Part shown: piece after piece, positions 21,861 to 26,315 of the stretch | Numbering within the stretch: position 1 is the stretch's first letter | Layout: the number at the start of each line of letters is the position of its first letter | Origin: a virus | Virus record (IMG/VR): IMGVR_UViG_3300007504_000006 | Coordinates: 22,249-86,248 of that record | DNA: 64,000 nucleotides | Strand: one strand, 5' to 3' | Notes under the pieces: model-generated | What the model saw: the letters and a program-made list of their open reading frames with translations, nothing else | Database searches by the model: none | What the model was told of the DNA's origin: nothing | Translations under genes and position numbers: made by a program

Positions 21861-22382
21861 ATGAAACTAACAGAATTTGATTATCCTCAAATATACTGCG
21901 ACATGGACGGCGTTTTAGTAGATTTAATAGAAGGTGCAACAAAAATATTAGGTTATAATTTTGCTGAACGTTATGGTTACGTTTCAGGAAAGCACGAACT
22001 ATGGGATAAATTAGCAGAAGAAAAATTATTTTGGGCAGAGTTACCTCCTATGCCTGATATGAAACAACTTTGGGGATTTATATCAACTTTCCAACCTTAT
22101 ATATTAACCGCTGTTCCTGCTGTTCGGTTAATATGGGATCCTCCAGCAGGAATTCAAAAAGCAATGTGGTGTGAAAAAAACTTAGGTATTAGCAAAGATA
22201 GAGTGTATGCTGTAAAACGCTCAGATAAAAAACACTTTGCTAAATCGCACGACGGTCGACCTAATATATTAATTGATGACCATCAACAAAATATTAATGA
22301 ATGGAATAAAGCAGGAGGAAAAGGAATACTCCACACATCTGCAAGTAACAGTATTAAACAATTAGAAGGTATTGGCTTCTAA
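21861..22382 (+). CDS. HAD-family 5'(3')-nucleotidase-like protein
   Basis: IYCDMDGVLVD, ILTA, K..W and ILIDD...NINEW..AGG.GILH motifs. Confidence 0.85.
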   Translation: MKLTEFDYPQIYCDMDGVLVDLIEGATKILGYNFAERYGYVSGKHELWDKLAEEKLFWAELPPMPDMKQLWGFISTFQPYILTAVPAVRLIWDPPAGIQKAMWCEKNLGISKDRVYAVKRSDKKHFAKSHDGRPNILIDDHQQNINEWNKAGGKGILHTSASNSIKQLEGIGF

Positions 22383-22558
22383 AGATTTTGTTGCTGTTTC
22401 TTTCCTGCCTTTGCATCAAGTTTTTGTTTAACAATTTCAAAAAACATTTCTCTTTCATCATAGGTCAACATCCACATATCATTGTATGATATCATTCCAT
22501 CTGAAAACACAACCAGTTCCATTAAATTCTTTTGAAAGGCTCTTACATCATCTTTCAT
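22379..22558 (-). CDS. gp51-like baseplate hub/tail assembly chaperone, 59 aa (missing from the ORF track); probably also the -1 frameshift extension of the upstream gene
   Basis: MKDDVRAFQKNLMELVVFSDGMISYNDMWMLTYDEREMFFEIVKQKLDAKAGKKQQQNL*; the frame stays open upstream to the T-TTT-TTC site. Confidence 0.75.
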   Translation of the reverse strand: MKDDVRAFQKNLMELVVFSDGMISYNDMWMLTYDEREMFFEIVKQKLDAKAGKKQQQNL

Positions 22559-22605
22559 TTCTTGTAAGATTTCCTGAATTTCGTCAGGAGTTGATTGTAA
22601 GAGCC

Positions 22606-23706
22606 TTAGGCGAAAAAAAGGGTCGGATCAAACACAATAGGAGTAGAAGATTTAGATGAACACTTTTCGCAATCAAATTCTATGATGTTATTAAAACCTA
22701 CATCTGTTATTTCTACTATTTTTTCTGATATAGACCCAAAAGAAGTTCGTCCTATATCATGTAACCATTCAGCAATTAATTGTTTGTCCTCAATTGAAGC
22801 AGTTGGTGTGTCTACTTTTATTATAGACCGTAATACTAGCTCATACGTTATTTCGGTAATTTTCTTTAATGATTTGCCTAATTCTACTTGTTTTTCGGCA
22901 TCAGTGGTATCATCATTTGCTAATATATTATTAGTAATCGCAGACCTTTCAAAATTTGCCAATGCTGATTGAATTTGACAACGAAGATCATATGGTTTAA
23001 CATATACAGTTAAATCGCCTATTACTATTTTATATTGTTTTTCGAGACCTGTTATTTGTGTATCTAATAAAAATTCTATATCTACATTAAATTCGGTAGA
23101 TGTATTACATTTTGTACACAAACCACTATAAGCTAATTCTTTCCCATATGTTACTAGTCGTATTGCTAACATTAAAACATTAAAATCTGGTCCAGGAATA
23201 TCATTTGGATTTTCAATATCTGGTACACACGATTTCATTACTTCAATTAATGATTCACCGTTCATTAAAATATCCGGAGATTTGAATAATAATTCATCTC
23301 TTGCAGTCATAGGTCTTACTAAAATTTCATTTAAGTTTGATAACTTAGGAGGTATAGTATAAAAGTTACCATTACTAGGTAATATTACATATACTCCGGG
23401 AGGTCTATGATATTGCATTAACGGATTAGAAGAATTAGTTTCTAAAACAGTATGTCGCACATTATGTTTTTTTGATTCAACTGTTTTTCCACCCTCACCT
23501 GAAACAGGTGTCTCTCGCTCAATTTTTTCTTTTTTAATCTGTTTTTTGGGAGTTGTTGAAAAATTATCTAATGCTTGATTTGCTATTTTTAATACAGGTT
23601 CTGCTTCTGGATTGTCTTTATATTTTTCTATAAATTGTTCTACTTGTTCTTTTGATTCATTAATGTCATAAAACTCGTTTAATATAACATTTGCATCTTC
23701 GGGCAT
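22606..23706 (-). CDS. gp26-like baseplate hub assembly protein with N-terminal extension
   Basis: NPL..Y.R.P..Y..LPS.G.FY, VRPMTARDELLFKSPD.L.NG, LAIR..TYG, two CxxC pairs, C-terminal FDPTLFFA. Confidence 0.75.
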   Translation of the reverse strand: MPEDANVILNEFYDINESKEQVEQFIEKYKDNPEAEPVLKIANQALDNFSTTPKKQIKKEKIERETPVSGEGGKTVESKKHNVRHTVLETNSSNPLMQYHRPPGVYVILPSNGNFYTIPPKLSNLNEILVRPMTARDELLFKSPDILMNGESLIEVMKSCVPDIENPNDIPGPDFNVLMLAIRLVTYGKELAYSGLCTKCNTSTEFNVDIEFLLDTQITGLEKQYKIVIGDLTVYVKPYDLRCQIQSALANFERSAITNNILANDDTTDAEKQVELGKSLKKITEITYELVLRSIIKVDTPTASIEDKQLIAEWLHDIGRTSFGSISEKIVEITDVGFNNIIEFDCEKCSSKSSTPIVFDPTLFFA

Positions 23707-23717
23707 TTTCCTCCTTA

Positions 23718-23742
23718 ATAAATATATATAACTCTATTTATA
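23718..23742. promoter_or_regulatory. Pair of overlapping late promoters for the divergent gp26-like and tape-measure genes
   Basis: ATAAATA on + (23718-23724) and TATAAATA on - (23735-23742). Confidence 0.55.
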
Positions 23743-23753
23743 GGCAGAAATTC

Positions 23754-26315
23754 ATGGCATCTATACAACTTCCAGGCGTAGGCTCAGTAGAAATACCTGA
23801 TTTTGCTACAGATTACACATTACAACAAGTATTAAATGTTCTTTCTAGTCAAGAAGCAGAACGTATCCAGGCCTTAGGAGAAATTAACCAAACACTTGTT
23901 ACAGGATCAAATGTAAGTAGAGCTCAATTAGCTAGAGATACAGAGACAGCATCTAATACTGGAAGAATGTCTCGAATGCAGGCAGTCCAACATAGAACCA
24001 ATCTTCAGACATTAAATCAAATGAAAGCTCAGCATAAAGAAATGTTATCTGCTCAAAAAAGAGCATCTGGGGCTTTCGCTCAACAAATGCCACAAATTAT
24101 GAGAATGGCTGGTTCAATGATATCAGGAAAAGGTATTAGTGATGCATTAAGTATGATGCCAGGTGGCCTTGGCCAAGGGATAGCATTAGCAACAAAAGTT
24201 GTAGGAGAATTTGCCGATTCTCAACGCAGATTAACAGATGTAGGTATGGGATTAGGAACATCTATTATTAATACAGGAGAAGCAATTAGTAGTTTTAATG
24301 TGCCATTAAGTGAATTAGAACGAATTGCAGGATCAAATGCAGTAACTTTAAATTACCTTAATGATACTACTATGGATATGACAAAGGCACATAAGGACTT
24401 ATTAGATCAAGGAGTCAGACCTGGTGTTTTTGCATTTGGATTAATATCGAAAACAGCAAGAGATAGCATGAAAGAATTTGGTAATTTTGGATTTACAGTA
24501 ACAGAAGTAAATTCTTTCTTAGCAGAATATTTAGAAACTGATCGAAAACGAGGAGTATTAGCACAGAACTCTGCTGTAAATTTAGCCGCAAATTTTAAAG
24601 CACTAGCCCAAGAAACTGCCGCCTATGCTTACGATACAGGTAGAAATCGCAAAGATTTAATGAAAGCCCAAATAGAAAATTTAAATCGTACTGATGCATC
24701 AACGTATGCTATGATGCTTAGAATGAAAGGCGAAGAAGGTGCGGCAGAAACATTTGAAAAGAATTTAGCATTAATTACAAATGAAATGAAATCTCGATAT
24801 GGAGAAAATGCAGATTCGATGATTGATGCATGGATACAAGCTCAAACACAAGGTAGAGGTCTAGAAGCAACAGAAGCAGGTGCAGAATTTATGGCTATGT
24901 TAGGACCAGCAGGTGCTGTTTTAGATCAAATGGCAAGATCTGGAGAAGCAATAGACCCTGCAATGTTTGGTAAATTTCATAAAGCATTAGAACAATCAGT
25001 AAAATCATATGACACTCAAAATTTTCAATTATTAGCAACTCAACATGAATCTTTACAAACAGCAGGTCGTATGTTATCTGAAGCTAGAACTACTACTGCC
25101 GAATCTCGACATCAAGCAAAATTACGATTGAAAGAAGGAGCCCAATTATTAAAAGCAAATGAAGCAGTAGTTACAGTAACAACAGATTTACAACAAGGAA
25201 TGTTAAGAGTAACTAATGCAATGGTTGGAGAGGGAGGGGCCCTTCAACCTGCACTTAAAAAAGCAATTGAATCAGTTGGACAATTTACAACTGCAATAGG
25301 GCAAGCGGCAAAAGGTGAAGGATTAGCCGCTTCGGCTACTATCGGAAAAATGTTATTGGACAATCCTTGGCAATTTTTGGCGATGGGAGCAGGTGCTTCA
25401 ATGCTACCTAATGTTAATAAAATGTTTCCACAATCAGGAACATCTATGGCAAACCAAAATAAATTTGCTAGTAGTTTGGCTATGTCACAATTAGGTTCCG
25501 CAACGGTTGGTCAAGGAAATAAAGTATTAAGAGGAGGACAAACATATGAGCTAAAGAACAATATATTTACAGATCCTAATTCCGGTTTGGACTACAAATA
25601 TGATCCCAAAACTGGAAAATTTACACCAACTAAAGGAGCCATAAAATCTATTACAGGTGGAACTGCGAGTAAAGCCATAACAGGAATGAAAGGTGGTACA
25701 TTATCAGGTATATTTTCCATTGGAATAGCAATGATGGAAGGTTATGAAGAATTACAAAGATCAGAATCAGAATTTAATGCACAATGGGGTGGTGCTGACG
25801 TAAATAAAGATTCGCAAGAATATAAAGATGCGGTCGCATTAAGAGATAAAAGAAGAAAAGATATTGCAATTAAAACTTTAGGAAAAGGTGGCGGCGGTAT
25901 GGGCGGTTCTATGTTGATGGGTGGCCTTGTAGGAATGCTAGGTGGCGGACCATTAATGTCGATATTAGGAACTGCACTCGGTGGTTATTATGGTTACAAA
26001 TGGGGTGGCGAAGCGGCAGAACAAGTAACTGGTAGAGAAGATATTTTTACTACAATGCAAGAAAGTATGGGCGAACATGGTAACGAATATACGCAAGGTC
26101 AAAAATTAGCACAAGAACAACAAAAAATTATAAACATGGAAAAAGCCAAAACAGATCCTCAATATTTAGAATTAACAAAAATACAAAAATTATTAGTAGA
26201 TCATGGAACAAAATTAGATGTAATTGCTGGTGCATCAGCATCTACCGCTATAGAAACAACAAAGATAACCAGAACACAAAGCCCGGCTATAGGCCCTCCT
26301 GGGAGAAATTATTAA
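23754..26315 (+). CDS. Tape measure-like protein
   Basis: Long helical A/M/Q/G-rich sequence with Gly-rich hydrophobic segments near the C-terminus; adjacent to the chaperone pair; likely start is the ATG at 23754. Confidence 0.65.
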   Translation: MASIQLPGVGSVEIPDFATDYTLQQVLNVLSSQEAERIQALGEINQTLVTGSNVSRAQLARDTETASNTGRMSRMQAVQHRTNLQTLNQMKAQHKEMLSAQKRASGAFAQQMPQIMRMAGSMISGKGISDALSMMPGGLGQGIALATKVVGEFADSQRRLTDVGMGLGTSIINTGEAISSFNVPLSELERIAGSNAVTLNYLNDTTMDMTKAHKDLLDQGVRPGVFAFGLISKTARDSMKEFGNFGFTVTEVNSFLAEYLETDRKRGVLAQNSAVNLAANFKALAQETAAYAYDTGRNRKDLMKAQIENLNRTDASTYAMMLRMKGEEGAAETFEKNLALITNEMKSRYGENADSMIDAWIQAQTQGRGLEATEAGAEFMAMLGPAGAVLDQMARSGEAIDPAMFGKFHKALEQSVKSYDTQNFQLLATQHESLQTAGRMLSEARTTTAESRHQAKLRLKEGAQLLKANEAVVTVTTDLQQGMLRVTNAMVGEGGALQPALKKAIESVGQFTTAIGQAAKGEGLAASATIGKMLLDNPWQFLAMGAGASMLPNVNKMFPQSGTSMANQNKFASSLAMSQLGSATVGQGNKVLRGGQTYELKNNIFTDPNSGLDYKYDPKTGKFTPTKGAIKSITGGTASKAITGMKGGTLSGIFSIGIAMMEGYEELQRSESEFNAQWGGADVNKDSQEYKDAVALRDKRRKDIAIKTLGKGGGGMGGSMLMGGLVGMLGGGPLMSILGTALGGYYGYKWGGEAAEQVTGREDIFTTMQESMGEHGNEYTQGQKLAQEQQKIINMEKAKTDPQYLELTKIQKLLVDHGTKLDVIAGASASTAIETTKITRTQSPAIGPPGRNY

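Follow-up and report, generated by a model that had tools for sequence, protein, structure and literature searches.

In long-tailed phages, a conserved -1 frameshift in the tail assembly chaperone genes was reportedly described by Xu, Hendrix and Duda in 2004. The G-T frameshifting typified by lambda is considered to be conserved "except T4", and chaperone pairs made by frameshifting are seen as almost universal among such phages (Atkins et al., 2016 review, PMC5009743). In T4, gp26 (208 amino acids, aa) and gp51 are both listed under the heading "hub assembly chaperone" (Leiman et al. 2010, Table 2, PMC3004832), and gp51 is needed for assembly yet is absent from the particle (Leiman et al. 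2010, PMC3004832). Here we analyzed a gene of this family in a 64,000-nucleotide (nt) stretch of DNA from an uncultured marine T4-related phage (the window; positions 22,249 to 86,248 of IMG/VR record IMGVR_UViG_3300007504_000006). Comparison of its sequence with those of its relatives indicates that the 3' end of this gene, the sole gp26/gp51-family (PF12322) gene found in the 86-kb record, very probably carries a programmed -1 ribosomal frameshift site.

The 366-aa protein encoded by the gene matched Pfam PF12322 (T4_baseplate) with 44.9 bits (cut-off 24.5) over profile positions 14-218 of 219, and also matched phrog_150, "baseplate hub". Two CxxC pairs and the terminal FF were invariant in a 12-sequence alignment (A1) that included T4 gp26, and the PF12322 domain, the CxxC pairs and the terminal FF are common to the window protein, gp26 and gp51. 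On the minus strand the gene ends ...GAT CCG ACC CTT TTT TTC GCC TAA. This places a T_TTT_TTC heptamer one codon before the stop, in X_XXY_YYZ phase with the upstream open reading frame (ORF; 23706-22606), as an initial annotation of this DNA had claimed. The -1 frame is open from stop to stop over 22627-22379 (82 aa), where it reads SDPFFRLRLLQSTPDEIQEILQEM..., and it runs on into a 59-aa ORF. The predicted trans-frame product has 365 + 77 = 442 aa and the junction ..PTLFF-RLRLLQ..., which is the junction peptide that the initial annotation had predicted.

To compare this junction among relatives we used two IMG/VR samples that were drawn by N-terminal peptide patterns only and hence were blind to the junction. 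All 91 distinct junctions of the giant-phage type, which is that of the window, were slippery (90 T_TTT_TTC and 1 T_TTT_TTA). Every one of these loci had a -1 ORF of at least 50 aa, and the codon preceding the two phenylalanine codons was always NNT, across eight different residues (N, S, D, V, L, T, R, H). The distinct junctions of the T4/cyanophage type were likewise slippery in 75/75 cases (39 T_TTT_TTT, 32 T_TTT_TTC and 4 T_TTT_TTA), with a -1 ORF of at least 45 aa at all loci and a preceding codon that was always T-ending, by means of five codon types. Overall, the same arrangement in the same phase was present at 166/166 junctions, from relatives with 23-98% protein identity. The 0-frame tails after FF were unconserved and had 0-9 codons in both samples, the 0-frame stop coming directly after the heptamer in 30 of the 75 T4/cyanophage-type loci. 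In an alignment of the extension (A3), FF was invariant and the following R nearly invariant, and it is at the heptamer that protein conservation passed from frame 0 into frame -1. The initial annotation had named the heptamer, an open -1 frame and amino acid conservation upstream of the small ORF's ATG as the features to look for in homologous loci; all three hold in every sampled relative. This comparison supports its proposal that this T4-like lineage makes a short product and a frameshifted fusion product.

The same pattern was found in GenBank. Hub genes of all GenBank relatives examined end NNT TTT TTC (T_TTT_TTT in XacN1), followed by 1-10 unconserved 0-frame codons and a stop, and their -1 frames read a conserved FFR(x)(x)LL..PEEI.. 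over a length of 58-86 codons. A tblastn search with the 82-aa -1 frame of the window found the same giant phages, with alignments that began at query residue 1-4 and thus started at FF, well upstream of the window's ATG. The arrangement was also present in the T4-like phages P-SSM2, Syn9, phiN3, Cr30, KVP40-like QD01, Aeromonas G2 and Stenotrophomonas Bhz51, and in RL2RES the heptamer is T_TTT_TTG. T4 and STML-198 (Tevenvirinae) are natural controls: FF is kept in these phages, where it is coded TTC TTT, and there is no extension, gene 25 coming directly next. Many relatives (e.g., L020, L027 and L031) have a second heptamer, A_AAT_TTT, that overlaps T_TTT_TTC. It is present where the residue before FF is Asn preceded by an A-ending codon, and it is absent from the window (ACC CTT TTT TTC).

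Table 1. Features of the hub gene and its surroundings, in positions of the window.
Feature	Position	Strand	Remarks
gp26-like baseplate-hub gene, 0-frame short product of 366 aa	22606..23706	-	ORF; stop TAA at 22608-22606
Slippery heptamer T_TTT_TTC, proposed -1 tandem-slippage site	22612..22618	-	codons CT[T TTT TTC] = L363 F364 F365
-1 frame extension, 77 codons	22379..22612	-	from CGC 22612-22610 to stop 22381-22379
First ATG of the -1 frame	22556..22558	-	opens the listed 59-aa ORF; no earlier ATG/GTG/TTG
Predicted downstream RNA structure	22536..22607	-	outer 12-bp (base pair) stem, 22607-22596 with 22547-22536
Inner hairpins of the predicted structure	22589-22583 with 22578-22572; 22570-22566 with 22554-22550	-	fold prediction
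874-aa gene (853 aa from ATG at 23754), divergent from the hub gene	23691..26315	+	possible tape-measure or gp29 analogue

The T4 proteins offer a way to interpret the two predicted products. Judged by its sequence, T4 gp51 (249 aa) is a paralogue of gp26, because PF12322 matches its residues 1-201 (E 3.9e-52). What gp51 has in addition is a C-terminal tail of about 48 aa, and residues 200-244 matched the T4-like extension family by hhalign at 62%, and then at 86% (E 5e-6) with a larger alignment. Two PHROG families were also matched by the cyanophage extension: phrog_634, "baseplate hub assembly catalyst", and, at its end, phrog_150. For the giant-phage type of extension, the match to this family reached 72% (E 3.4e-5) and covered its final 40 columns, and the identical FFR start, position and context back this link between it and the T4-like extension. 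Directly against T4 gp51 nothing aligned with the window-type extension, and the hub alignments A1 and A9 gave weak hhalign results with the single T4 gp51 sequence. Since the gp51 tail aligns to the extension family, we consider the trans-frame product a putative counterpart of gp51 and the 0-frame product a putative counterpart of gp26. The "gp51-like" label that the small ORF had initially been given is therefore apt in a sharper sense than was intended, gp51 itself being a gp26 paralogue plus a tail. T4 genes 26 and 51 are separate genes, as had been stated, but gene 51 is not downstream of gene 26 and the two are divergently transcribed.

T4 and, by prediction, the window are alike in having a short form and a long form, the C-terminal tail of gp51 being a probable homologue of the -1 extension. 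They differ in that T4 has two divergently transcribed paralogues and no slippery site, whereas here one gene is proposed for both forms, and in that the window protein has about 90 extra N-terminal residues and a tail of 77 aa versus about 48 aa. The number of PF12322 genes is one in each of 121Q, PA5oct, P-SSM2 (frameshift type) and the window's 86-kb record, and two in both T4 and the record behind locus L107. In the latter, a 336-aa short gene ends ..SNFLPETKTLMS and has no T run, and a 338-aa long gene, starting one base later, has the extension in frame with the junction caa TTT AGA. When 1.84 billion representatives were searched with the extension profile, 600 relatives were obtained. 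Of the 150 best matches, about 22 were natural in-frame fusions, 319-351 aa long, that have just one F at the junction. One of these fusions was modeled as a single confident unit (predicted local distance difference test score, pLDDT, 91.4; predicted template modeling score, pTM, 0.87) in which the tail is a helix-loop-helix at about residues 258-333. Because two-gene (short and long) and in-frame fused equivalents exist, both the short and the long form appear to be needed, with lineages obtaining them by frameshifting or by duplication. Beside the tandem hub genes of L107, at 139-1361 on the minus strand, are a 116-aa ORF and a 320-aa ORF that has a CxxC..CxxC motif at its C-terminal end. 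The two together resemble an IS200/IS605-type TnpB/OrfB element residing in a phage genome.

The RNA downstream of the heptamer is predicted to be structured. Starting 4 nt past the heptamer, the outer stem contains the ATG of the small ORF as well as two small hairpins. The 92 nt 3' of the heptamer had a minimum free energy of -27.6 kcal/mol (z -5.2), and 0/200 dinucleotide shuffles were as stable. Relatives with 72-98% protein identity retain the structure, and two pairs in its inner hairpins have changed in a compensatory manner. One sister clade has instead a 10-bp hairpin 3 nt downstream of the heptamer and another an 8-bp hairpin 2 nt downstream. Changes within these sister-clade hairpins are compensatory and mostly synonymous (88% and 96% of cells paired), and their covariation score was matched by 0/500 shuffles, slid controls being far lower. 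In the T4-like group (loci L162-L241) we observed a purine-rich Shine-Dalgarno-like motif 5-20 nt upstream of the heptamer at 67 of 75 loci versus 1 of 65 of the giant-phage type, although the pattern used is permissive and lies inside conserved L-E/K-G codons, making the motif only a lead. The T4-like and giant-phage groups may use different stimulators.

Based on these data we propose the following model for expression of the gene. Most ribosomes would read CTT TTT TTC GCC and then stop, producing the 366-aa short form as the counterpart of T4 gp26. In a fraction of ribosomes the two tRNA-Phe would slip back by one base on T_TTT_TTC and then read CGC CTA AGG ..., adding 77 residues that would form a helix-loop-helix tail and producing the 442-aa long form as the counterpart of T4 gp51. 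Slipping is probably stimulated by the stable stem 4 nt downstream, at which the ribosome would pause. By analogy with T4, the two forms, made in a set ratio, would help to assemble the complex of central hub and tape measure. We infer that the slippage is ribosomal rather than transcriptional, and its efficiency and the function of the two forms are inferred likewise.

Several observations weigh against this model and have to be set beside the evidence from the relatives. The spacer between heptamer and stem is 4 nt here and 2-3 nt in the sister clades, which is below the usual 5-9 nt. The giant-phage type of extension is linked only moderately to the gp51 tail. Data showing the product, from proteomics, ribosome profiling or reporters, were found neither for the phage nor for any relative, and no RNA run containing the locus was found. 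A text search of Sharma et al. 2014 (PMC4066793) for the heptamer returned nothing, and no measured bacterial efficiency of T_TTT_TTC was retrieved. In Vibrio phage D533 (L104, 1899-2099) the heptamer has been lost (TCA CTT TTC AAG TAA) and the small ORF is kept with an ATG right after the stop. In addition, some start codon lies close to the junction in roughly a quarter to a third of relatives (20/65 giant-phage-type and 20/75 T4/cyanophage-type junctions). Because of D533 and these start codons, the extension may also work, or be made, as a separate small protein in some lineages. The public annotation of D533 covers only a fragment of its small ORF.

If this were so throughout, the locus would consist of two separate genes, with the small ORF translated alone from its ATG as a 59-aa protein, or by termination-reinitiation, and with no fusion being made. 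The -1 relation would then come just from overlap or coupling, as TAATG and ATGA overlaps likewise place the next gene in the -1 frame. The ATG does overlap the stop in 121Q, QD01, Bhz51 and RL2RES, and GenBank annotators treat the small ORF as its own gene. In the window, however, this ATG is the sole start codon. It sits 20 codons past the last base of the heptamer and 23 codons after the upstream stop of the -1 frame, so that the 20 conserved extension codons that precede it (from CGC 22612-22610) are untranslatable from it, and its Met is conserved only within the window's own clade (alignment A3). The initial annotation had described this ATG as lacking an obvious ribosome binding site, and our direct reading of the sequence likewise found no Shine-Dalgarno motif at normal spacing before it; the ATG also lies inside the predicted stable structure. 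From the upstream stop of the -1 frame to six codons past the first F, there is no ATG, GTG or TTG at 45 of 65 giant-phage-type and 55 of 75 T4/cyanophage-type junctions, and at several loci a stop codon immediately precedes the heptamer. At the extension, PA5oct and MIJ3 lack both a start codon and an annotated gene, Aeromonas G2 likewise has no usable start, and in Syn9 (L097) the annotated "gp51" begins at a TTG, so that the conserved N-terminal part is lost. Separate translation would leave unexplained the invariant NNT TTT TTY and the first F that is conserved directly after a stop. Owing to the missing start codons and the stops directly before the heptamer, only slippage would explain why the codon before FF keeps its wobble T and why the -1 frame keeps its first F. 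Moreover, T4 gp51 and the other natural in-frame fusions indicate that the tail works attached to a hub domain. On balance we give the two-gene alternative little probability.

Slippage could also occur during transcription. RNA polymerase would then add one U on the T run, and the edited mRNA would be read normally to give the same long form. The conserved element is a homopolymeric T run, rU:dA hybrids are prone to slippage, and the T4-like group often has runs of at least 7 T (39/75 T_TTT_TTT). Bacterial RNA polymerase, however, usually needs about 8-9 T for efficient slippage (reviewed in PMC5009743), and the run has 7 T in the window and just 6 T in most relatives, always in the exact X_XXY_YYZ phase. 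The conserved hairpins with compensatory changes just 3' of the run are typical of ribosomal frameshift stimulators, and most T4-like loci have the upstream Shine-Dalgarno-like motif, as in dnaX. We regard transcriptional slippage as improbable for these reasons. A chance arrangement, a homopolymer assembly error or a decaying gene might be suspected, given that T runs are common in AT-rich DNA and that one frame in three is -1. This was refuted by the comparative data, and we hold its probability to be negligible: the identical arrangement is present in all of the independently assembled relatives sampled, and contigs of four other marine metagenome studies (2014-2024) covering 22515-22729 had no indel at the T run. 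Programmed -1 ribosomal frameshifting thus remains the explanation that we strongly favor.

The initial annotation had likened the pair to the lambda G/GT chaperones. As with gpG/gpGT, comparative data point to two products of a tail-assembly gene, one short and one extended at its C-terminus, that arise by -1 slippage at an X_XXY_YYZ heptamer located a few codons ahead of the stop. The T4 counterparts gp26 and gp51 are assembly factors, and gp51 is not in the virion. In the relatives phiN3, QD01, RL2RES and Cr30, the gene also lies between tube and large tape-measure-like genes. The order in phiN3, QD01 and RL2RES is tube (or tube initiator), hub gene, extension, (small ORF) and large gene, and in Cr30 it is hub gene, extension, small ORF and a gene annotated as tape measure. 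In contrast to lambda, the heptamer is T_TTT_TTC and not G_GGA_AAG, and the window gene is divergent from the putative tape-measure gene and has no adjacent tube gene. The likeness therefore fits in expression logic, by analogy, but not in membership of the tail assembly chaperone (TAC) family by sequence: Pfam matched the hub part to T4_baseplate alone and the extension to no family, and a sequence search of the PDB gave no match.

In a VIA-align scan of the short form, YqbN (3klu), which we take to be an XkdN-type chaperone, had Z 5.8 (root-mean-square deviation, rmsd, 3.8; 84 aligned) and the HK97 TAC (2ob9) had Z 5.4 (rmsd 3.4; 84 aligned), both of which are in the common-noise range (Z below 8). 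These two chains were among the 13 best of 48,161. The model of the long form had no match in the PDB by Foldseek, and a wide VIA search with it found only generic helix-loop-helix matches (Z at most 5.5). It is conceivable, although to us somewhat less likely than the contrary, that lambda gpG/gpGT have their T4-type counterparts, and possibly distant homologues, in gp26 (short) and gp51 (long), which would act as a fixed-ratio chaperone pair on a gp29-like tape measure and hub. The frameshift would then be ancestral in T4-related and giant myoviruses, duplication having replaced it in T4. If true, this would remove the sole textbook exception ("except T4") to the tail-chaperone frameshift rule.

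A further comparison can be made with E. coli dnaX, which yields tau and gamma. There too a single gene gives rise to two products at a set ratio, through -1 slippage at a heptamer with flanking stimulators, other lineages get the same pair by other genetic means, and the upstream Shine-Dalgarno-like motif is shared with the T4-like relatives of the window. It differs in that the frameshift product of dnaX is the shorter one and in that the protein family and process are unrelated.

No joined coding sequence was annotated in the GenBank records that we inspected, and we found no published report of a frameshift in gp26/gp51 or in the baseplate hub, although our coverage of the literature was incomplete and prior publication is possible. 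If the favored reading is correct, the gp26/gp51 family is a short/long pair whose two forms come from a single gene in most T4-related and giant phages, by way of a conserved -1 slip, with T4 as the derived case. This would provide a concrete, testable model for gp26 and gp51. It would also be a large and deeply conserved example, from bacterial viruses, of T_TTT_TTY frameshifting that relies on two distinct types of stimulator. Among the family members, the window would stand for one that has a stem structure of its own and a hub protein extended at the N-terminus. In hundreds of phage genomes the annotation, in which the extension is missing, truncated or called a separate "gp51", would be corrected accordingly. 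Public annotation leaves the extension unannotated in, for example, PA5oct (L001), MIJ3 (L002) and Aeromonas G2 (L101).

The source of the window is an 86-kb IMG/VR record estimated to be 35% complete, and the phage is probably giant because a record of that size is estimated to be only 35% complete. The closest GenBank relatives of the hub protein, at 24-34% identity, were from the giant phages Atu_ph07, PA5oct, 121Q/Rak2-like, Serratia BF, GAP32, SCTP-2 and Vibrio 2.275.O, and blastn of the locus versus GenBank phages found nothing beyond one 110-nt patch. The AlphaFold model of the short form had a pLDDT of 82, and its fold matches in BFVD were baseplate hub proteins (E down to 4e-23). The approximately 90 extra N-terminal residues (23437-23706, minus strand) are present in the window's clade, which also includes L004-L007, and other family members do not have them. 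This region was modeled as three helices (residues 3-50), followed by a low-confidence linker (52-80).

Neighbors of the hub gene in the window include a T4-type portal, gp46/gp47-like genes and a nucleotidase. The hub gene had initially been placed directly beside a tape-measure-like gene. There is indeed a large neighbor, of 874 aa, but it is transcribed divergently and its identity as a tape measure rests on weak leads. Neither Pfam nor PHROG gave a match for it, BLASTP showed no similarity to T4 gp29, and the ESM Atlas gave weak leads to PhageMin_Tail and TMP_3 clusters (at 0.92). A large protein is encoded at the same divergent position in PA5oct, 121Q, BF, GAP32 and SCTP-2, and is annotated as virion structural in the first four of these and as hypothetical in SCTP-2. 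In PA5oct the flanking large proteins bear a mass-spectrometry "structural protein" note, which the hub protein does not. On the other side of the hub gene, the extension ORF and a convergent 5'-nucleotidase-like gene (21861-22382, plus strand) share 4 nt at their stop codons (22379-22382).

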